Shown here piece after piece: positions 6,080 through 20,901 of a DNA stretch of 28,902 bases (the stretch's first letter is position 1; each line of letters opens with the position of its first letter). The DNA is taken from the IMG/VR virus record IMGVR_UViG_3300045988_042831. One strand, written 5' to 3'. Under the pieces are notes generated by a model. It was not told the DNA's origin. It saw only the letters and a list, made by a program, of their open reading frames with translations, and ran no database searches. The stretch comes from a virus. A program made the position numbers and the translations under genes.

Positions 6080-8561
6080 CCATGATGATATCCGCCAGCG
6101 CCCGCACGTCCTGTCCCGGCGCGCCGTATACCGTGATATTGACGCCGCCGAGGTCAGTCTGGTTGGTTGTGTTGCTGGTGAGCGGCTGCACCATGGCGCG
6201 GTTTCCCATCATTGTGAGCAGCTCCGGTCCGGCCTCACCAACGATCGCCGAGCCCTGCGAGAGGATACCGCCCTTTGCCAGATACGGTATATTCGGGATA
6301 TACGGGATACTGAGGCCGAAATGCCCGCCGCCGAGCCATTTCGGCATGGTAAAGCTGATCGAGTTTAAGCCTCCGATCAAGCTGTTAATTGCGCCGACCG
6401 CGCCGTTCAAAAGCCCGATGATGCCGTTTAACGGCGCTTTTACCATGTTGATGAGGCTGTTAAACAAGCCGCCGAAGATGTTGACGACGCCTTGCCACGC
6501 CTGCTTCCAGTTGCCCGTGAAAACGCCTTTGATGAAATCGAGCACACCTTGAAAAATCTGCTTGATCGCGTTCCACGTGTTTTCAACATTTCTCATAAAA
6601 GCGTTGATAACGTCGCCCAGTCCCGGACCGAAAATTTCCGTCCAGTCCATTTTGAAGACGCCTTGCAGCCAGCTATCCAGCCCCAAAAGGATGCCTTCGA
6701 TCAGGTCGCACGCGCCTGTGATTATCCCAGTGATGGTGTCCCACACGCCCGAGACGATCTCCTGCACACCGTTCCACGCCTGCTCCCAGTTGCCGGTAAA
6801 AATGCCTTGAATAAAATCAATTACACCGTTGAGGATCTGATAAACGCCGTCCCAGATGCCTTTCAGCAGCGAAAAGAATCCATTCAGCACATTGCCTAAG
6901 ACGGGGCCAAAAATCTCCGTCCAGTCCGTAGCAAAAACGCCCTGCAGCCATTCGTTAAAACCTGCCAGCCATGCCTTGATCTCTTCGCCTTTTGTGACAA
7001 TCAACACCAGCACTGCAATCAGTGCGGCGATGGCCGCGATCACAAGCACGATCGGGTTTGCTGCGAGGAAGGACAGTGCACTGGAAATTGCTGAAATACC
7101 ACTGATCACGCTTTGCACAAACTCGACGATTTTCAGCGCAGTCAGCGCGATACCGATCGCGCTGATTACACCGATTACGATTTCCTTGTTTTCGATCAAA
7201 AAGGATACGACGTTCGATACCGCATCAAAAAAGTTCTGGACGCATCCGACGATGGTATCCATGTCGATGCCTGCCGTTGCATCCAAAATCGCTTGTAAAA
7301 TGCCGTTTATGCCCTCCTGCACAGCTGTAAGTACAGGCTGCACACGCTCCGAAAGCTCGGCTGCCTTTTTCGTAAATTCGAGCTGCGCGTTGTTGGCGTC
7401 TACAATGTCCTTGTTGTTGCTGTACCATGCATCGCCGACATCACTGAGGCCCTGATCGGCCATAGCCCGTAAGACGAGGTTTGTCCGGTCGGCCTGCGTT
7501 TCGGCGTCCTGCAATGCAAGATTAAAAAAATCTTCGGCGCTGGAAGCATCTTGCACCGCCTTGTTCCACTCCTCGTTTTCCTCGGTGTTTTCTTTGAGCA
7601 TTACGCCGAAGGTCTCGCCCTCTTTGCTGCCCCAGTTCAGGACGTCCGCAAAGGTGCCCGTCACCTGCCCGGCGCGGATTGTTTCGTTTATCGATTCCGC
7701 AAGACCGTCGATCGGGATGCTGTCCCCGTATTTCGCCCAAGCGCCGACGGCACTCGAAATCAGACTGTTTATATCCTTTTGCGACGCACCAATCGCCTGC
7801 AGGTTCGCCGTTGTTGTGGCAGCGGACTGATCGTCCCCAAGCGCCCCGTAAAGCTGAGAAAAAGCCTCGCTTGTCTCCTCCGCGGAGTATCCCGCCGCCT
7901 CGCTGGAGGTTTCCAGCGTGCCCATGATCTTGCGGTACTCTTTGGTTTCCTCGTTCAGATCCTTAATCCCGGATACGATTCCCTTGATGCCCTCGACAAG
8001 TACATCGGCTTTGAGATGATCGGCGAAACTGGACGCACTGTCTCCCGCTTCTTCGAGCGCGTCGTCTGCGTCCTTGGCCGCATCTTCTACGTCCTCGATC
8101 GGCTTCTCGTCGATCTTTTTGACCTTTGAGGCTGTCTCGGACGCCGCGTCTCCAAGTTGTTTTAAAGCGGATTCGCCCTTTGATTGCGCGATTTCATCCT
8201 GCAAGCTGGACGCCGCCTTTTCGGCTTTCCGCAAATCCGCTTCCGTCGCGACGATTTCGCGCTGCAGTGCATCGTACTGCGCCTGCGAGACTTTCCCCTG
8301 CGCAAACTGTTGCTGCACCTGCTTTTCGGCGTTTTTCAGCGAATCCAGCTTTTGCTTTGTCTGTTCCACGCTCTCCGCCAGAAGCCGCTGCTTCTGCTCG
8401 AGCAGTGTGGCGTTGCCCGGGTCCAGCTTCAGCAGCCGTTCGACGTCGCGCAGCTGCTTCTGTGTCGAGTTGATCTCTTTGTTTACGCCCGAAAGCGCTT
8501 TAGACAGTGCAGTCGTATCGCCGCCGATTTCGATTGTTATACCCTTGATTCGATCCGCCAT
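6030..8561 (-). CDS. Tape measure protein
   Basis: 843 aa. It has an N-terminal coiled coil, central hydrophobic helices and an internal tandem duplication of about 93 codons (..DWTEIFGP..). It sits downstream of the chaperone pair. Confidence 0.9.
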   Translation of the reverse strand: MADRIKGITIEIGGDTTALSKALSGVNKEINSTQKQLRDVERLLKLDPGNATLLEQKQRLLAESVEQTKQKLDSLKNAEKQVQQQFAQGKVSQAQYDALQREIVATEADLRKAEKAASSLQDEIAQSKGESALKQLGDAASETASKVKKIDEKPIEDVEDAAKDADDALEEAGDSASSFADHLKADVLVEGIKGIVSGIKDLNEETKEYRKIMGTLETSSEAAGYSAEETSEAFSQLYGALGDDQSAATTTANLQAIGASQKDINSLISSAVGAWAKYGDSIPIDGLAESINETIRAGQVTGTFADVLNWGSKEGETFGVMLKENTEENEEWNKAVQDASSAEDFFNLALQDAETQADRTNLVLRAMADQGLSDVGDAWYSNNKDIVDANNAQLEFTKKAAELSERVQPVLTAVQEGINGILQAILDATAGIDMDTIVGCVQNFFDAVSNVVSFLIENKEIVIGVISAIGIALTALKIVEFVQSVISGISAISSALSFLAANPIVLVIAAIAALIAVLVLIVTKGEEIKAWLAGFNEWLQGVFATDWTEIFGPVLGNVLNGFFSLLKGIWDGVYQILNGVIDFIQGIFTGNWEQAWNGVQEIVSGVWDTITGIITGACDLIEGILLGLDSWLQGVFKMDWTEIFGPGLGDVINAFMRNVENTWNAIKQIFQGVLDFIKGVFTGNWKQAWQGVVNIFGGLFNSLINMVKAPLNGIIGLLNGAVGAINSLIGGLNSISFTMPKWLGGGHFGLSIPYIPNIPYLAKGGILSQGSAIVGEAGPELLTMMGNRAMVQPLTSNTTNQTDLGGVNITVYGAPGQDVRALADIIMDEMQNATERKAAVFGA

Positions 8562-8565
8562 CTAA

Positions 8566-8771
8566 TCACCCTTTCGGAAAAAAGTGGTTAATATCCGCCT
8601 GCGTTGCTTTATACGGATATTTTTCTTGGTCGTTCGCCTGCTCGATCAGCATATCGTAGACCATGCCCACTGTCATATCGTCGAGGTCCTCGCGGCTCAG
8701 TCCCAACTCCGCGCAGCGGAGCATAAAGGTCGCGCCGGTTGCTTCACGCACCGTCTGCCTTATTTTTTTTT
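8566..8771 (-). CDS. Tail assembly chaperone, -1 frameshift extension (gpT-like part of a G/GT pair)
   Basis: The -1 frame is open from the A9 run (8763-8771) down to 8566. The 61-aa ORF in the track has only a GTG start and no RBS. Confidence 0.55.
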
Positions 8772-9179
8772 AGACTTTGCTGTCGTCTGCGCGTTGATCG
8801 CCCAAAGCTCGAGAATTGCCGGAAGCACCTCGTAAATCGAAAACGTCTCGAATCCGTCGAGCCACCCCTCCGGCGTGTCCGGGATGTTGGCGTCATACTG
8901 CCGCGCCATGATGTAGGCGGCATTTTCAAAAATTTCGAGGTCGGTCACGTCAAGCTGAGATTCGTGCACCAGCGCTTCATAGGCCTCGCGCTCTTCGGCG
9001 GGCGCATCTTCTGCCGGTTTTTTGGCATGGATGCCCTGCAGCGCTTTGGTGTACGCCTTCTGCAGGTTGTTTAGGTCCTGAATCATGTCCCGGCCGATTT
9101 TATGTCGGTAAAGGCGCGGGGTCAGGGCCGAAGCCCTAAACCCCACCTCCTTTCCGTCAATTTGAATTCTTTTCTCCAT
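8760..9179 (-). CDS. Tail assembly chaperone (gpG-like)
   Basis: It lies between the major tail protein and the TMP. The start MEKRIQIDGKEV at 9179 has an AAAGG RBS. It ends in SKKK-stop inside the slippery run. Confidence 0.7.
   Translation of the reverse strand: MEKRIQIDGKEVGFRASALTPRLYRHKIGRDMIQDLNNLQKAYTKALQGIHAKKPAEDAPAEEREAYEALVHESQLDVTDLEIFENAAYIMARQYDANIPDTPEGWLDGFETFSIYEVLPAILELWAINAQTTAKSKKK
8763..8771 (-). promoter_or_regulatory. Slippery A9 run (TCT AAA AAA AAA TAA) for programmed -1 frameshifting
   Basis: Nine consecutive A on the minus strand lie directly before the chaperone stop codon. The frame arithmetic was checked by hand. Confidence 0.55.
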
Positions 9180-9193
9180 ATGCTTTACCTTTC

Positions 9194-9763
9194 TCAACCT
9201 GCGGTAGGCGTATAGACCTTCGTAAACCAAGCCGTGCGAACGCTCTCCGGCGTCTCACTGGTCGTGCGTGCAAAGACGTTGCCGTTTTCGAGCGACGTCG
9301 CAGAGATCGTGCTGGTCTGCGTCTGCGGCTCCTTGGTGTCCGTACTCGTCGCGCCGACAATGCCCGGGCGCGTGCCCGTGCAGTTGTACATGCAGTACAA
9401 ATCGTTGTCGGCGTCGCCGTCGATCTGAAAAAGGAGTGCGAAGCTCTTCGGCTCAACACCCACATTCTCAATGATCGTTTTGTCGGTGGCGTTGAGCACG
9501 TATCCCCATACATCCTGCAGCATCTTGTCAATAAATCGCGCCATTTCGAGGTCGCCCTCGTATCCGTTGTTCGAACTGGATTTGTAGTACACAACGCCGT
9601 CCGCGTAAAACGGCGTAATCTCGCCGCTCGCCTCGAGCGACAGATTCACGGCGCCCGGCACAGGGACCGGATTTTCCCATGTCGGCGTTTCGCCGTCTGC
9701 GGTCATTACCGCGTAGTGCACGTTTTTGATGTTAAACTGCACCTTGTTTTCGTTTGTCGCCAT
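9194..9763 (-). CDS. Major tail protein (phi13 family-like)
   Basis: 189 aa. MATNENKVQFNIKNVHYAV..TPTWENPVPVPGAVNLSLEASGE..FYADGV is typical of this family. It sits upstream of the chaperones. Confidence 0.8.
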   Translation of the reverse strand: MATNENKVQFNIKNVHYAVMTADGETPTWENPVPVPGAVNLSLEASGEITPFYADGVVYYKSSSNNGYEGDLEMARFIDKMLQDVWGYVLNATDKTIIENVGVEPKSFALLFQIDGDADNDLYCMYNCTGTRPGIVGATSTDTKEPQTQTSTISATSLENGNVFARTTSETPESVRTAWFTKVYTPTAG

Positions 9764-9765
9764 TG

Positions 9766-10077
9766 TTACACCTCAACTTCGTACAAAATTTGATAACATT
9801 TTTCTGTGTCAATATAAGTTTCCGATTTTTCCCAAAAGAGCGAGGACAGGGCGCTTTCCACCATGCCCTCCGCTTCGGGATTTTTATCTTTTGTGTAAAG
9901 CTCGATCTGCACATGATCGATTGGCTGGTATACGACGCCGTCCGCCGAAAAGTTGTTGCTGTATGCGGCGAGATAGCAGATGTACGGCAACTCAGGCGCT
10001 CCGCCAATCGGCCATGCCCTGTATACCACGGGCAAACCTGTGCTTTCCAAAAGCTGATATAGATTCTCCAGCGTCAT
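9766..10077 (-). CDS. Tail terminator / tail completion protein
   Basis: 103 aa, lying between the HK97 gp10-like protein and the major tail protein. The call rests on synteny. Confidence 0.5.
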   Translation of the reverse strand: MTLENLYQLLESTGLPVVYRAWPIGGAPELPYICYLAAYSNNFSADGVVYQPIDHVQIELYTKDKNPEAEGMVESALSSLFWEKSETYIDTEKCYQILYEVEV

Positions 10078-10454
10078 TTTTTGATCACCACCTTCACGGC
10101 ACCCACGAGCTTATCTGCAGCAGCCTGCTCGGCCGGGCGGATATGCGGCTTGCCGTCCACGCGGCCACCGTTTACCTTTGCATGACCGTTTTCGAGCAGA
10201 TGCGTGAGCTGCGGCTTTGTGCGGTTGGATATGCGCACCCGGATGTCCTCTGGGCTTTCAAACTCCACCTTGGACGTCCAGCCACGCGCATACTCGCCGG
10301 TATCCCGCGGGGATGTCGTTTTCAACGTGCGGACTGTTTCTTTTGCCACGTCCTTCACCGATTTTTTTAGGCCTTTGGCGACCTCATCGCTGTAAGCCTT
10401 GAGCTCTTTCACAATCTCGATTTCAAGCTCCTGTAACCGGATTTTCCGCGCCAC
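10074..10454 (-). CDS. HK97 gp10-family head-tail joining protein
   Basis: ..SPRDTGEYARGWT..HLLENGH.. motif, together with its position. Confidence 0.7.
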   Translation of the reverse strand: MARKIRLQELEIEIVKELKAYSDEVAKGLKKSVKDVAKETVRTLKTTSPRDTGEYARGWTSKVEFESPEDIRVRISNRTKPQLTHLLENGHAKVNGGRVDGKPHIRPAEQAAADKLVGAVKVVIKK

Positions 10455-17088: not shown

Positions 17089-17282
17089 GATCCTATCTCC
17101 GAATCGCTGCACTCTTTCTTCCCGGTCTCCCGCAGATACGCTTCCCGCCGCTCCGTCAGCCGCGTGGTGCATAGCGCATACGGGCAAACCACAAGCATGC
17201 ACAAATGCTCGCCCGTCCTCGCGTATGTATCCCAAACGCAACCGCTTGAGCGTGGACACGGGCGATATGCTTTTTTACTCAT
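17085..17282 (-). CDS. Cys-rich 65-aa protein resembling the N-terminal zinc-ribbon part of phage HNH endonucleases
   Basis: MSKKAYRPCPRSSGC...CPYALC. RBS GGGAGG. It has ATGA overlaps at both ends (17279-17282 and 17085-17088). Confidence 0.5.
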   Translation of the reverse strand: MSKKAYRPCPRSSGCVWDTYARTGEHLCMLVVCPYALCTTRLTERREAYLRETGKKECSDSEIGS

Positions 17283-17596
17283 CTCTTTGCTTTCCTCCCG
17301 AGCTCCTCAATCAATTTTAATTCGCGCTTTGATAGTTCCCATTTCTCCGCTGCTGCTTTCTCCGCTGCTGCTTTCTCCGCTGCTTTCCGTTCCGATAGCA
17401 AGAGACCACCGCCGAAACAACTTTTTTTGGCTTCTGCCTGCGCGTCTAACTTTGCGATAGCAGTGCATTCATCGCGACGCACCTTAAAGTCTATGCCGTA
17501 CTTAGAGTACCGCTGAAGCATCGCCGCAGTGACTACGTTATCCGGGTAATCATACTTTGGCCGCGTTCTGGTTTTTTCGGCTTTTAATCTATCCAC
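17279..17596 (-). CDS. Hypothetical protein with an (AAEKA)n repeat
   Basis: 105-aa ORF encoding ERKAAEKAAAEKAAAEKWE. No family was recognised. Confidence 0.5.
   Translation of the reverse strand: MDRLKAEKTRTRPKYDYPDNVVTAAMLQRYSKYGIDFKVRRDECTAIAKLDAQAEAKKSCFGGGLLLSERKAAEKAAAEKAAAEKWELSKRELKLIEELGRKAKR
17342..17385. repeat. 15-bp tandem repeat (tttctccgctgctgc, about 2.8 copies), coding
   Basis: Read directly from the sequence. It encodes the AAEKA repeats of the 17279-17596 ORF. Confidence 0.8.
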
Positions 17597-17757
17597 AACC
17601 TCTTGTACCGCGCGACCAAGTTCGGGTGCCGCCAGTTTTTTACCACCTCGTATACCTCCGGCGGAGTGTAGCAGTCATCCGTCGTTAACTTAGGCTTAAA
17701 TTTGTTCACAAACGCCTCGTACTCTGCGTTGCTCTCTAAAGCTGTCTGTTTTTCCAT
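17584..17757 (-). CDS. 57-aa protein resembling only the N-terminus of a phage adenine-methyltransferase-like family (..KPKLTTDDCYTPPEVYEVV..)
   Basis: The start MEKQ at 17757 lies 5 nt after AGGAGG. The motif is recalled from memory. No (D/N)PP(Y/F) catalytic motif follows, so it may be a remnant. Confidence 0.4.
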   Translation of the reverse strand: MEKQTALESNAEYEAFVNKFKPKLTTDDCYTPPEVYEVVKNWRHPNLVARYKRLWID

Positions 17758-17776
17758 CGGCGCCTCCTGCATAGCA

Positions 17777-17808: not shown

Positions 17809-17880
17809 ACCTAATAACTCTATTATTTAGTATATAGATTAAATCGCACCATTTGGTACAAAAACGCCGAAAAGCAAAAA

Positions 17881-18273
17881 TTATTTTTCGCCCGGGCACT
17901 CATTTTTGAATAAACCATAATACTGACTTTTGAGCGTGTTGATCGCCGGAACTTTACCGCTTTTGCTCATCTGCGCTGCGACCCGGTCCCACGAATAGCC
18001 ATGAAACGCACGAAGCATCACGACGCGCCGCAACCATGCGCTTTTGATGCCGAATACAAATTGCTCTATCTCTTGCTTTTGCGCTTTGAGCTTTGCAATG
18101 TGCTCGGCATATCTCTGCGGCCCAAGCCCGCGCACGGTGATGGGATGTTCGGTAAACGGAAATTCATCCGATGATCCGCGCACTATATCGCTTATCACCG
18201 TTTTATTCTCGCGCTCAAGCTCTTCGATTTCCGCGCAGATGTCGGGGTATTGCTCCAAAAGTTCTTTTGTCAT
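17881..18273 (-). CDS. Late-gene transcriptional regulator, ArpU/RinA-like (sigma-70 region-4-type HTH)
   Basis: MTKELLEQYPDICAEIEELE...VRGSS..FP.....I.V.G.......I..FV..I...W.R.V..LR...G.SW..VA. This is the last gene before the packaging module. RBS AAGGAGG. Confidence 0.55.
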   Translation of the reverse strand: MTKELLEQYPDICAEIEELERENKTVISDIVRGSSDEFPFTEHPITVRGLGPQRYAEHIAKLKAQKQEIEQFVFGIKSAWLRRVVMLRAFHGYSWDRVAAQMSKSGKVPAINTLKSQYYGLFKNECPGEK

Positions 18274-18284
18274 TTCCCACCTCC

Positions 18285-18908
18285 TTACCCCCATTGATCG
18301 GCCATGGCTTTTGCCACGCCTGGATCTGTAGTAAACATACCTTTATATTGTCCTCCGTGTTTGTGACTGTAGCTCCCGCTCGGGCACCATGTAGCAACAG
18401 GCTCCACAACATTTGTAGATTCAAGCGGCGGAAGTCCTTTGAGCCACAAGCAGGTTTTTTTGGTGTAAGGATGGCCGAATTGATACGGCTGAATGGCCTG
18501 CGTATACGGCGGCAGGCAGAATACTTTTGATGGAACAGGGTTCTCAACGCATATAAGTGGTATGTCAGCCCACCAAAACCGCATAAACAAATCCCTACCT
18601 TGAATGCCAAGCATGACTCTGTCGGACTGTAGTTCATGGCCTTTCCACAAGTGCCTTGCGCCAGCGTTTGATAAGTAAGTGCAAGGTGGGTGTGCAATAA
18701 GCAAATCCCATTTGTCCGCGTGATGCTTTCTGCCGTCCATCGTTACAAAATCACCTCCATTCAAAATTTCCAATGCATCTCCTTGTATATGATATTCTGG
18801 ATGCCCACCCGAGCACGGTAAAACGTCGCAGCTAAAAGCATAATGTCCTTTGTCCCGGAAAGACATTGCTACCCGTTGGCTCTCTTCACAAGCCACTAAT
18901 ACATTCAT
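18285..18908 (-). CDS. C5-cytosine-methyltransferase-fold protein lacking a recognisable SAM-binding motif I
   Basis: HPPCTYLSNAG (PC motif IV-like), CVENPV (ENV motif VI-like), LWLKGLPPL and a C-terminal AKAMADQWG. The N-terminus reads VLVACEESQ where FxGxG would be expected. Confidence 0.55.
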   Translation of the reverse strand: MNVLVACEESQRVAMSFRDKGHYAFSCDVLPCSGGHPEYHIQGDALEILNGGDFVTMDGRKHHADKWDLLIAHPPCTYLSNAGARHLWKGHELQSDRVMLGIQGRDLFMRFWWADIPLICVENPVPSKVFCLPPYTQAIQPYQFGHPYTKKTCLWLKGLPPLESTNVVEPVATWCPSGSYSHKHGGQYKGMFTTDPGVAKAMADQWG

Positions 18909-19169
18909 TTACTCATCCTCCATCGGAAATTCGAGATCATCGAGGTAAAGTGCTTCGCCAAGGCCACGCGCAAGCATATACCATTGCAGGCCGGTAAAAT
19001 TCTTCGATTCCATCCGTATGATCTCGCTTTCTTCATCTTCCGGAGACGGAGCGAAAGTGACTACCAAGCCGCTTTCAACTGTTCTTTCTGTCCCGTCCTC
19101 GTATCGGATTGTAATCTTTTCTATCTGGCTTTTTTCTTTTGCTGCCCACTGCTTTTTTACAAGTGCCAT
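18909..19169 (-). CDS. Hypothetical acidic protein, 86 aa
   Basis: The ORF is tightly packed between the PAPS-reductase-like and MTase-fold genes (its TAA stop abuts the next ATG). Confidence 0.5.
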   Translation of the reverse strand: MALVKKQWAAKEKSQIEKITIRYEDGTERTVESGLVVTFAPSPEDEESEIIRMESKNFTGLQWYMLARGLGEALYLDDLEFPMEDE

Positions 19170-19181
19170 TTTGCTCCTCCT

Positions 19182-20276
19182 TTATTTATTTAACATCGTC
19201 TGCTCCGGCGCGAACTCTGCTTCCGGCGATCTCCACTCAACGCCTATATAATCAAGCACGTGTCCCCAACCGTATGTGTTACCGCTTTCGTCTGTGCAGC
19301 ATTTATTCATCCAAAAATCCCATTCTTTCGCATCTCTTTGCCACAGCGCATCAAATCGATGAGGCCTCTTCTCAAGCTGGATACCAAATCCGCACATTGA
19401 GCACCCTGTACGTTGCGCCTTAGTAGTATAAAGCGTTCCGTCGTTTCGCTGCTCTATTTTTCCGTAAATTTCCGGCACAGGTACCTCCAGCTCAATCGCG
19501 AGGCGCAACAAGTCTTGCCGCGAAAAGATAGCAAATGGGCAGCTTCTTTTTGTTCCGGGCGAAATGTAGTTGCATCCGTGCATCATCAAGGCCTTTTCTC
19601 TTCTTCCGCCTTCAGAAGCCATCAGCCCCATATACGGAAAACGACCCGATTTTTTTGCGTAATCGTTGCATGGCTTTTCCTTCAGATAATAGCAACATTT
19701 ATCTGATACCAAAAAATCCGGCTTGCCGTAATTTACATTTTCATTTTCGTTCTCGTAACCCCCGAACTTCTCAAGCCATTTTTGTGAAAGTTTCATCCTC
19801 GTGTTTTTTCGGTATCCGCCATATTCGCCCGTTTCGCCCGTAATGATTGCATGCCGCACGGTTGCGTTTTTGGGGCTTGGATTTTGCAGCAGGCTTATTT
19901 TTCCGGCGATCTCTTTTGATAACACTGGCCACCCAAACTCACGGATAACTTGTACTTTGCTTTTGAGTGGTTTAAGCGCTTGTACTCCGAGCTGCCGATG
20001 AACACTTTGTATGCTCTTATCCTCGAGTATGGATACAGATACAGCCGGTACATTAATCCCAATTTTACGCAAAAACATTAAAAGCGTAATGCTATCCAAT
20101 CCGCCTACGGCAACGTAACAGTTTCCCGCCACGTCTGGGTGGTTGTAAAATTCCCATGCTCTTGCCTCTGCATATTTAATTTTAAAATCGTAATCCAACT
20201 TTTGCTTTACTCTAAAATCTGCAATTTTCTTTTCGGTGTTGAGCCGTTTATTTCTTTCAATGCAATTTTCTGTCAT
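19182..20276 (-). CDS. PAPS reductase / PP-loop ATPase family protein (DndC-like, phage type)
   Basis: PP-loop-like VAVGGLDSITL and a C-terminal Cys cluster RTGCSMCGFG. 364 aa. Confidence 0.7.
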   Translation of the reverse strand: MTENCIERNKRLNTEKKIADFRVKQKLDYDFKIKYAEARAWEFYNHPDVAGNCYVAVGGLDSITLLMFLRKIGINVPAVSVSILEDKSIQSVHRQLGVQALKPLKSKVQVIREFGWPVLSKEIAGKISLLQNPSPKNATVRHAIITGETGEYGGYRKNTRMKLSQKWLEKFGGYENENENVNYGKPDFLVSDKCCYYLKEKPCNDYAKKSGRFPYMGLMASEGGRREKALMMHGCNYISPGTKRSCPFAIFSRQDLLRLAIELEVPVPEIYGKIEQRNDGTLYTTKAQRTGCSMCGFGIQLEKRPHRFDALWQRDAKEWDFWMNKCCTDESGNTYGWGHVLDYIGVEWRSPEAEFAPEQTMLNK

Positions 20277-20291: not shown

Positions 20292-20690
20292 TTATGCTGC
20301 TACGTATGCCACCGCTGCGGCGATGCCCACAAAGCCAAGCACCACCATAGCTTTCACGCATCGCTCAAGCCCGGCGATATTGTCCGCTGCGTCGTACTCC
20401 CGCGACTTGCGCATCACGATGCACTCCGTGAGCGTCGCCGAGATTACGAGCACGACCAACTTTCCGTTCTTTCGCGCAACGATCACACGTTTGCCACCTT
20501 CTGGCAGTTTCTCTTTCACGTAGATCCATCTGCGTGCATTTAAGTGCTCAACCGCCTCCCTGATAATCGCGCACCCATACACGCCGCAGTTATGCTCATG
20601 CCCACAACCGAGGCAGCACAAGGAGTCTGCCAGCGAGCCGGTCTCCGATTCCATGCGCTCAAGCGCATTGATGAGTTCATCTGTTGTCAT
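20292..20690 (-). CDS. Hypothetical protein with a Cys cluster and a C-terminal TM helix
   Basis: MTTDELINALERMESE...CCLGCGHEHNCGVYGC...VVLGFVGIAAAVAYVAA. The start at 20690 has an AAAGGAAG RBS. Confidence 0.5.
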   Translation of the reverse strand: MTTDELINALERMESETGSLADSLCCLGCGHEHNCGVYGCAIIREAVEHLNARRWIYVKEKLPEGGKRVIVARKNGKLVVLVISATLTECIVMRKSREYDAADNIAGLERCVKAMVVLGFVGIAAAVAYVAA

Positions 20691-20901
20691 ATCTGATCTT
20701 CCTTTTATGTTTTTTCTCAACGGCTTTCCGCACGTCGCGGTGGAAGCCTACCTCGTCTATTGCTTTCGCGCGCTGCTTGCCCTCAAGCAATTTTGTGAGC
20801 TTGTATCTCATGTACCTTTGGCACGTGCTGTGGCAAGTCTCACGCTCGTTTGCATATCTGTCCGGGCAGTTCTGCGGGCATGGACCCAGACGTTGCATCA
20901 T
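20677..20901 (-). CDS. Cys-rich 74-aa protein
   Basis: MMQRLGPCPQNCPDRY..ETCHSTCQRY. It has an ATGA overlap with the upstream gene at 20898-20901. Confidence 0.45.
   Translation of the reverse strand: MMQRLGPCPQNCPDRYANERETCHSTCQRYMRYKLTKLLEGKQRAKAIDEVGFHRDVRKAVEKKHKRKIRYDNR

Follow-up and report, generated by a model that had tools for sequence, protein, structure and literature searches.

The virus record IMGVR_UViG_3300045988_042831 of the IMG/VR database comprises 28,902 nucleotides (nt) of DNA, hereafter the window, and contains at positions 18285-20276 an island of three genes. The first encodes a protein with the fold of phosphoadenosine phosphosulfate (PAPS) reductases, the second an acidic protein of 86 amino acids (aa), and the third a small protein with the fold of cytosine-5 (C5) methyltransferases, which we call the mini-methyltransferase. 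A preliminary description of this DNA had proposed that these proteins act in one DNA modification pathway. We compared the island with sibling phages, near-identical prophages and the wider families of its genes, and we consider it more probable that the three genes are separately exchangeable cargo in an anti-restriction slot of a prophage.

The three-gene island

The island is made up of the following open reading frames (ORFs):

19182-20276, minus strand: gene 1, PAPS-reductase-superfamily PP-loop protein of 364 aa, PHROG 424
18909-19169, minus strand: gene 2, acidic ORFan of 86 aa, no assigned family
18285-18908, minus strand: gene 3, mini-methyltransferase of 207 aa, PHROG 757, deletion allele

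The coordinates and the tight packing of the three ORFs given in the preliminary description were borne out on the minus strand, and all motifs quoted there (GGLDS, CSMC, VLVACEESQ, HPPC, ENP, LWLKGLP and AMADQWG) were found. Each ORF is preceded by a Shine-Dalgarno sequence, AAGGAG, AAGGAGG and GGAGGATGAG for genes 1, 2 and 3, respectively. The spacer between genes 1 and 2 measures 12 nt and that between genes 2 and 3 is 0 nt, while gene 3 overlaps the following regulator gene by 10 nt. Since all three ORFs have many homologues in public data, we regard them as real genes.

The higher AT content ascribed to the island is also real. Its GC content is 45.8% compared to 52.9% for the window, and only 3.3% of segments of the same size (mean 53.5 +/- 3.6%) are as GC-poor, every one of them located within 26.5-28.9 kb. 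The two rows of sequence that had been counted by hand in the preliminary description have GC contents of 41.7% (19741-19800; 43% by hand) and 58.3% (6121-6180; 58% by hand). The GC content at third codon positions (GC3) is 0.45-0.47 for the three island genes, as opposed to 0.58-0.62 for the genes encoding RusA, SSB, the DnaC-like protein, the HNH protein and the regulator.

Families, folds and motifs of the encoded proteins

The gene 1 protein is matched over residues 23-330 by PHROG 424 ('phosphoadenosine phosphosulfate reductase'; E 4.1e-19, 69.9 bits). The Pfam family PAPS_reduct (PF01507) stayed below its gathering threshold (15.4 vs 22.5 bits, E 0.02), NCBIfam gave no match, including none to CysH, and PADLOC returned no family at E <= 0.1 and hence no DndC, SspD or BrxP model. 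Searches against the sequences of the PDB yielded chance matches only, and a profile of the gene 1 family does not find a reductase there either. By sequence, the homology to PF01507 is only transitive: BLASTP aligned the gene 1 protein with the N-terminal domain of P0283 (E 4e-13, spanning SxxCCxYLKxKP and RTGCxxCxF), one of two fusion proteins (P0283 and P0391, see below) that themselves match PF01507 at 8.5e-15 and 1.2e-21, respectively. An AlphaFold2 (AF2) model built on 70 relatives reached a predicted local distance difference test (pLDDT) score of 87 and a predicted template modelling (pTM) score of 0.85. When this model was searched against the PDB with Foldseek, the top matches were the PAPS and adenosine phosphosulfate (APS) reductases 7rge, 6vpu, 1sur, 2o8v and 2goy (probability 1.0, E ~1e-4), followed by TtuA, GMP synthetase and FAD synthase. 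This ranking places the protein in the PP-loop/adenine-nucleotide alpha-hydrolase superfamily, closest to CysH, and together with the PHROG 424 match it upholds the PAPS-reductase superfamily assignment made earlier. The family comprises at least 5401 clusters at 90% identity (E <= 1e-5) and is concentrated in phages and prophages of gut Clostridia. Identity of the gene 1 protein to most members from cultured phages is ~25-30%, and it rises to 56-60% for the Clostridium phages Saumur and Villandry.

Three short motifs of the gene 1 protein are invariant in an alignment of 70 relatives:

20091-20105, minus strand: G58-G-L-D-S62, PP-loop variant
19692-19697, minus strand: cysteine pair C194-C195
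19392-19403, minus strand: C292-x-x-C295 (CSMC, residues 292-295)

The pair C194-C195 had been overlooked in the preliminary description. Together with C292 and C295 it forms a CC...CxxC pattern, which resembles the [4Fe-4S] ligand pattern of APS reductases and DndC. True PAPS and APS reductases are defined by a C-terminal cysteine of the ECGLH type, which forms the thiosulfonate intermediate. No such cysteine follows C295 in the gene 1 protein, the later cysteines (NKCC, residues 325-328) not being conserved in the family consensus, and a true sulfonucleotide reductase is therefore unlikely. The protein further differs from CysH (PF01507; 1sur, 2goy), with which it shares the fold and a cysteine pattern like that of iron-sulfur (Fe-S) APS reductases, in ~50 N-terminal and ~65 C-terminal residues beyond the reductase core and in its genomic context.

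With DndC, SspD and BrxP, the gene 1 protein has in common the PP-loop ATP-pyrophosphatase-type fold, a similar CC...CxxC pattern that may represent a [4Fe-4S] site and a link to DNA modification; it differs from them in that it lacks a PADLOC match, an adjacent DndD, SspC or BrxC nucleoside triphosphatase (NTPase) and a DndE, SspB or DUF4007 part. A P-loop NTPase partner (DndD, SspC or BrxC) is required for phosphorothioate synthesis (PMC12914056). Gene 1 is flanked by the DUF551-like ORF on one side and by the genes of the 86-aa ORFan and the mini-methyltransferase on the other, none of them a P-loop NTPase, and its protein is therefore presumably not a self-sufficient phosphorothioate synthase. 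Closer in kind are the phage 'PAPS reductases' of PHROG 424, among them the PAPS-Dam protein p0018 of Vibrio crassostreae podophages (Piel et al. 2022). They belong to the same family, have the PP-loop fold and lie in a variable region beside DNA methyltransferases, to which a candidate anti-defence role would fit; unlike p0018, the gene 1 protein stands alone and is not fused to Dam. Phage PAPS reductases under Aca regulation were also listed as candidate anti-defence genes of variable regions in a 2026 survey (PMC13551039).

The commonest neighbour of the gene 1 family in its IMG/VR relatives (loci L004-L083, e.g. L030, 11069-11800) is a protein of ~190 aa with a borderline match to ASCH (Pfam E 1e-3, 20.2 bits vs a cut-off of 21.2 bits). 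In 32 of 84 loci its gene lies no more than 2.5 kb away, in most cases immediately downstream.

The 86-aa protein encoded by gene 2 is, as described before, acidic and tightly packed between its neighbours; it has an isoelectric point of 4.46 and contains 19 Asp and Glu compared to 10 Lys and Arg residues. Its only profile matches are below threshold (Pfam Phage_Gene47 and PHROG 690, both E 0.005), and tblastn against GenBank phages found nothing. The exact sequence is present on 550 contigs and carries in NCBI the name of a hypothetical protein of Hominenteromicrobium mulieris (Oscillospiraceae) or of Caudoviricetes.

The gene 3 protein is matched from end to end (residues 1-207 on positions 15-219 of 247) by PHROG 757, 'DNA methyltransferase', with an E-value of 1.5e-47. 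No match was obtained in Pfam (E <= 0.1), PF00145 included, or in NCBIfam, the PADLOC model MTase_II matched 23 residues only (E 0.051), and PDB sequences gave a single weak match around the PPC motif (E 0.11). The AF2 model (pLDDT 81, pTM 0.81) matched 60 PDB chains in Foldseek at E <= 0.001, the best 50 of which are all C5 methyltransferases, among them DNMT1, M.HaeIII (1dct), DNMT3A/B, Dnmt2 and M.HhaI (E 1e-5 to 8e-4, probability 0.97-1.0, template modelling score normalized to the query ~0.5). In the viral structure library, the named matches were mostly C5 methyltransferases as well, including 'putative cytosine methyltransferases' of ~200-250 aa. The C5-methyltransferase fold recognized in the preliminary description is thus upheld by both PHROG 757 and Foldseek. 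The following motifs were located in the gene:

18876-18893, minus strand: ACEESQ at the place of motif I (within VLVACEESQ, residues 3-11)
18681-18689, minus strand: PPC, motif IV (P74-P75-C76; HPPC, residues 73-76)
18537-18545, minus strand: ENP, motif VI (residues 122-124)

Conservation was calculated on 107 diverse representatives of the family, and close relatives were aligned in sets of 14 and 64 members. Among the 107 representatives, the PPC motif is conserved at 93-96% (catalytic Cys 96%) and ENP at 96-98%, and K.T.LWL is kept. The motif ACEESQ is retained with C7 at 87%, E8 at 89% and S10 at 84%, and D28, at the end of the second strand, is conserved at 91%. The close relatives show little or no variation in ACEESQ, SCD, SGGHPExH, D44 and the C-terminal RAKNRAKTFPG.A.AMAEQWG. 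The absence of an FxGxG motif I, which had been noted for this copy, is thus a property of the whole family. By our reading, ACEESQ sits at the FxGxG place; this correspondence is based on the order of secondary structures and on the motifs, as hhalign of the mini-methyltransferase family with five canonical C5 methyltransferases from the sampled loci aligned motif IV alone, over 25 columns. An adenosyl cofactor would be in line with the conserved acidic residues D28 and D44, whose positions may be those of motifs II and III, and the Glu-Glu loop of ACEESQ points to something unusual.

Compared to canonical C5 methyltransferases (PF00145; M.HhaI, M.HaeIII and the DNMTs), the mini-methyltransferase has the same fold (Foldseek probability up to 1.0), the PPC motif with the catalytic Cys and the glutamate of ENP/ENV as well as, by reading, a motif VIII-like K.T.LWL and a motif IX/X-like R..KTFPG.A.AMAEQW. 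It differs from them in its length of ~200 rather than >300 aa, in ACEESQ instead of FxGxG, in the additional invariant SGGHPExH and in the lack of a Pfam match. Moreover, motif reading leaves ~40 residues between LWL (residues 154-156) and the motif IX/X-like tail in proteins of 207-216 aa in total, and there is therefore no room for a full target-recognition domain. Two proteins of 471 aa, P0392 and P0393, consist of two tandem mini-methyltransferase domains, each with ACEESQ-like, PPC and ENP motifs, and this arrangement suggests that the ~200-aa form may normally be dimeric.

A HMMER scan put the family at no fewer than 4204 representatives of 50%-identity clusters (E <= 1e-3), nearly all of them stand-alone proteins of ~200 aa. 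Members are found in Cellulophaga, Vibrio, Arthrobacter, Pelagibacter, Burkholderia and Clostridium phages; at 41-50% identity to these ~200-aa proteins, the gene 3 protein is a full-length member of PHROG 757, which deviates from the others in one family segment, RAKNRAKTF, while the remaining invariant motifs are present. In small genomes, namely 15-20 kb Arthrobacter phages and 5-8 kb records labelled Microviridae and Inovirus, the mini-methyltransferase can be the sole gene of its kind, and no PAPS match occurs there. Domains resembling the mini-methyltransferase also lie inside large phage proteins, the BFVD entries A0A6J5NPY6_2 (1126 aa) and A0A6J5SE15_1 (1397 aa), one of which is annotated as helicase/UvrB N-terminal and both of which are reminiscent of the polyvalent proteins with which phages and plasmids counter restriction. 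A literature search on the PHROG family identifiers and on C5 methyltransferases without motif I or recognition domain returned no study of the mini-methyltransferase family. The proteins encoded by genes 1 and 3 are hence new members of PHROG 424 and PHROG 757, families that are known and annotated and have remained uncharacterised.

Exchange of the genes among related phages

The content of the slot was compared in 26 IMG/VR phages, referred to as siblings, which share the backbone RusA-orf110-orf142...reg137-HNH at ~90-100% amino-acid identity. The PAPS-like gene was present in none of the 26. Five siblings carry the 86-aa gene alone, four the 86-aa gene plus the mini-methyltransferase, four the mini-methyltransferase alone and 13 neither of them. 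The 86-aa gene thus occurs in nine siblings, every one of them without the PAPS-like gene, which it never accompanies outside the lineage of the window; it is restricted to the group of these phages and stays with the backbone regardless of the other two genes. The mini-methyltransferases found alone are 58-66% identical to the window copy.

Other methyltransferases occupy the same slot. Dam (PF05869, E 7.8e-27) was found in seven of the 26 siblings by phmmer with the Dam sequence; an early count of 17 of 21 slots, obtained by clustering of neighbours, was an artefact that arose from joining ORFs by the upstream leader they have in common. Four of the 26 have a canonical C5 methyltransferase (PF00145, E 3e-38), which never occurs together with the mini-methyltransferase and ends 15-16 nt upstream of the regulator gene where positions are comparable. 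Altogether, 13 of the 26 slots contain at least one methyltransferase. A protein of 153 aa directly upstream of the regulator gene in one sibling (L209, 5543-6001) has a weak match below threshold to the Mom family (PF25680, E 1.2e-4), the family of an enzyme by which phage Mu hypermodifies DNA. A sibling slot also contains a weak Lar-like match. We conclude from this mosaicism that the slot is a hot spot for DNA-modification and anti-restriction cargo in which the three genes assort independently. The part of the preliminary description that assigned the island to DNA modification or anti-restriction gains indirect support from the Dam, canonical C5-methyltransferase and weak Mom- and Lar-like contents of the slot; the part that joined the genes into one pathway does not.

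Variation was also found among near-identical copies of the prophage itself. Seven further copies (L164-L170) are at least 98.6% identical to the window in nucleotide sequence over the region, most of them at least 99.5%. The PAPS-like and 86-aa genes are undamaged in all of these, and the state of the mini-methyltransferase gene is as follows:

L165, L167 and L168: intact, 216 aa
L169: the same 27-nt deletion as in the window
L164 (near-identical NCBI contig BRDB01001150.1): frameshift, A7 to A9
L166 and L170: 311-nt deletion

Two sites in the window correspond to these lesions:

18321-18326, minus strand: junction of the 27-nt in-frame deletion, codons D195|P196 (18323/18324), located by alignment and DNA comparison with L165
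18455-18461, minus strand: A7 homopolymer in the mini-methyltransferase gene, A9 in L164

Comparison with the DNA of the intact 216-aa allele of L165 revealed that the 27-nt deletion removed RAKNRAKTF, a stretch of nine near-invariant residues (at least 90% conserved among relatives) whose absence the preliminary description had overlooked. By reading, the segment corresponds to a motif IX-like helix, and its loss may impair the window copy. With 13 contigs carrying it, compared to 232 for the intact allele, the deletion allele is a true minority variant and not an assembly error. The 90%-identity mini-methyltransferase cluster (P0515, P0516 and P0521) also holds unrelated proteins of 85-115 aa (MPETKKKVVPLSERE...), whose counts were not used as truncated alleles. 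One prophage copy lies inside a 3.18-Mb chromosome and the host names of the sequence clusters are Hominenteromicrobium; a nucleotide search of the island against GenBank phages gave no match. In L164, an extra insertion between the HNH and small terminase genes (8348-10085), absent in the window and in the other copies, encodes a protein with a ParB_N domain and a protein of the QueT (queuosine-precursor transporter) family.

Linkage of the genes was further assessed in IMG/VR on 80 loci anchored on the PAPS-like gene and 80 loci anchored on the mini-methyltransferase, with flanks of up to 10 kb and searches with hidden Markov models. A mini-methyltransferase was detected in nine of the 80 PAPS-anchored loci, in eight of them at a distance of 7-9 kb and in one adjacent and frameshifted, and the PAPS-like gene in none of the 80 mini-methyltransferase-anchored loci. 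When only well-flanked loci (at least 3 kb on both sides) were considered, a mini-methyltransferase lay within 3 kb in none of 43 PAPS loci and a PAPS-like gene within 10 kb in none of 61 mini-methyltransferase loci. The 86-aa gene was absent from all 160 loci. In species-representative genomes, two of 29 PAPS prophage loci also hold a mini-methyltransferase, one of them adjacent and frameshifted. With the fusion protein P0391 as a probe, 190 GenBank phage records were retrieved with one matching place each, none covering 80% of the probe, and at this sensitivity no record matched both halves. The co-occurrence in other genomes that the preliminary description had proposed as a check of its pathway was thus largely lacking.

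The slot is bordered by the following features:

20292-20720, minus strand: ORF of 142 aa with a weak DUF551 match, upstream border
17881-18294, minus strand: putative late transcription regulator of 137 aa, PHROG 36 'transcriptional regulator' (E 1.5e-9), weak DUF722 and Sigma70_r4_2 matches, downstream border
17844-17861: terminator-like hairpin after the regulator gene, from a scan whose number of sites is at chance level

As this promoter and terminator scan returned no more sites than expected by chance or from shuffled sequence, we do not claim internal transcription signals, and the island genes probably belong to a long minus-strand operon that ends at the hairpin 3' of the regulator gene. 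The 142-aa ORF looks chimeric. Its residues 1-58 match the N-terminus of a DUF551-like sibling protein of 120 aa. Residues 88-133 correspond to a different segment, which in L216, the only sibling for which the two positions were compared, follows the Dam gene. This suggests a deletion or fusion at the site that is occupied by Dam in other phages.

Two short minus-strand ORFs past the regulator gene (17584-17772 and 17279-17596) are remnants of one gene for a 286-aa protein (PHROG 21498), which is intact in L165 (7431-8291), L167 and L168 and has an internal deletion of ~322 nt in the window and four copies. The intact protein has no Pfam or PDB match and contains a DNPPF motif reminiscent of motif IV of amino-methyltransferases. 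All five copies with this deletion have a lesioned mini-methyltransferase, with three types of lesion, and the three with the intact gene have an intact one. A functional tie between the two genes, which these coinciding lesions had suggested, was rejected since both genes occur independently in sibling phages.

Competing explanations and their consequences

Taking these data together, the explanation to which we give somewhat better than even chances is that the island is an exchangeable anti-restriction cargo slot of a Hominenteromicrobium prophage, filled with three independent cassettes rather than with one pathway. The slot would lie in a temperate tailed phage of human-gut Hominenteromicrobium (Oscillospiraceae), between the replication and recombination genes (RusA, DUF551-like ORF) and the late regulator, HNH and terminase genes, and would be co-transcribed with the early/middle minus-strand operon. 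The gene 1 protein would be an ATP-using and probably Fe-S-containing enzyme that acts on a nucleic acid by adenylation or thiolation, or else counteracts a phosphorothioate-based host defence; judging from its fold, motifs and position, nucleic-acid modification or anti-phosphorothioate defence is its most likely role. The 86-aa protein would be a backbone-linked ORFan. As to the mini-methyltransferase, it would represent a minimal C5-methyltransferase core, most likely acting alone to modify cytosine C5 in the phage DNA and thereby evade restriction. We favour action on its own because the gene takes the same position as a canonical C5 methyltransferase, its catalytic Cys and Glu are near-invariant and it is the lone accessory gene of this kind in genomes of 5-20 kb.

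Several observations weigh against this explanation and bear on the pathway of the preliminary description, in which the methyltransferase-fold protein would activate C5 of cytosine and the PP-loop enzyme would adenylate or transfer a group. In a fuller version of this pathway, the methyltransferase-fold protein would attack C6 or would simply flip or target the base, the 86-aa protein might take part, and the resulting hypermodified base or backbone would block restriction. In the fusion proteins P0283 (547 aa) and P0391 (596 aa), which share 58% identity, a PAPS domain and a mini-methyltransferase domain are combined in one chain, an architecture that is real, maintained and rare. The methyltransferase part is degenerate in both, one having IGDTQQ and the other EPSC and VINP where PPC and ENP would be expected, and this would fit a role in targeting rather than in catalysis. 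The PAPS-like gene is directly followed by a mini-methyltransferase in the diverged lineages L043 and L199 (PAPS-like proteins 68% and 54% identical to that of the window) and by a canonical C5 methyltransferase in L033, and a PAPS-Dam fusion protein of Vibrio phages was shown experimentally to be part of an anti-Dnd determinant (Piel et al., bioRxiv 10.1101/2021.05.05.442762). In addition, the equally low GC3 of the three genes would fit a joint acquisition, the sampled loci are phylogenetically clumped in a few gut-phage lineages so that their counts are not independent events, and the mechanisms that we propose for all three proteins are deduced from fold, motifs and position. On the other side stand the independent assortment in the siblings, which lack the PAPS-like gene throughout, the absence of linkage in the 61 and 43 well-flanked loci and in the 190 GenBank phages, and the absence of the 86-aa gene beside PAPS-like genes of other lineages. 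The fusions amount to two clusters in a clade with over 100 clusters of stand-alone PAPS proteins, the mini-methyltransferase is frameshifted in both other adjacent cases (L043 and L199), and it has suffered three types of lesion in near-identical prophages in which the PAPS-like gene is intact. We therefore regard the single pathway as unsupported and unlikely. The fusions, the adjacencies and the anti-Dnd case leave a low probability to a partnership of PAPS-like proteins with methyltransferases, and they fit equally well with shared cargo of a hot spot. In its most specific form, which is suggested by the fact that PAPS domains are in rare cases fused to methyltransferases of two unrelated folds (Dam in the Vibrio phages, the mini C5 core in P0283 and P0391), a PAPS-fold PP-loop/Fe-S enzyme and a methyltransferase-fold partner would install a non-methyl DNA modification or defeat phosphorothioate defence, the mini C5 core would serve as a base-flipping or base-activating module without the usual use of S-adenosylmethionine (SAM), and the island would be the unfused version. 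Such an arrangement is conceivable and, in our estimate, slightly less probable still.

Two further alternatives concern single proteins. The mini-methyltransferase might not be a SAM-dependent methyltransferase. In that case its cofactor might be a different one, its chemistry at C5/C6 might proceed independently of SAM (deamination, exchange or addition of an aldehyde, for instance), or it might be a decoy that flips bases or binds DNA. The family-wide ACEESQ in place of FxGxG, the lack of Pfam, NCBIfam and PADLOC methyltransferase matches together with the restriction of the hhalign alignment to motif IV, the missing space for target recognition and the dimer suggested by the tandem proteins would agree with this. 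We nevertheless consider it rather doubtful, though worth keeping in mind, given the nearly invariant catalytic Cys and ENP, the fit of D28 and D44 to an adenosyl cofactor, the occurrence of a canonical C5 methyltransferase in its place in other siblings and the structural matches in the PDB, of which the best 50 of 60 are all C5 methyltransferases. Far less credible is that gene 1 is an auxiliary metabolic gene encoding a true PAPS or APS reductase that boosts sulfur assimilation of the host. The best structural matches are indeed reductases of the CysH type, and the family is annotated as PAPS reductase and sometimes discussed as metabolic (bioRxiv 10.64898/2026.02.18.706556). The sub-threshold Pfam score, the failure of NCBIfam CysH and of the family profile to connect the protein with reductases by sequence, the missing ECGLH-type cysteine, the terminal extensions and a slot otherwise filled with DNA methyltransferases make this very improbable.

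If the cargo-slot explanation is correct, what looks like a three-gene hypermodification pathway is separately exchangeable cargo, located at a hot spot for anti-restriction genes in a prophage that is common in the human gut. The mini C5-methyltransferase family, for all its thousands of clusters, is annotated 'DNA methyltransferase' despite having neither a canonical SAM loop nor a recognition domain, and knowledge of the activity of a single member would clarify how thousands of phage genes should be annotated. Virome studies often list phage 'PAPS reductases' among the auxiliary genes of sulfur metabolism. A role in nucleic-acid modification or anti-defence is favoured here by the location of the PAPS-like gene in a slot for methyltransferases, by the lack of the catalytic cysteine and by the fusions to methyltransferases, and this affects the interpretation of gut viromes.

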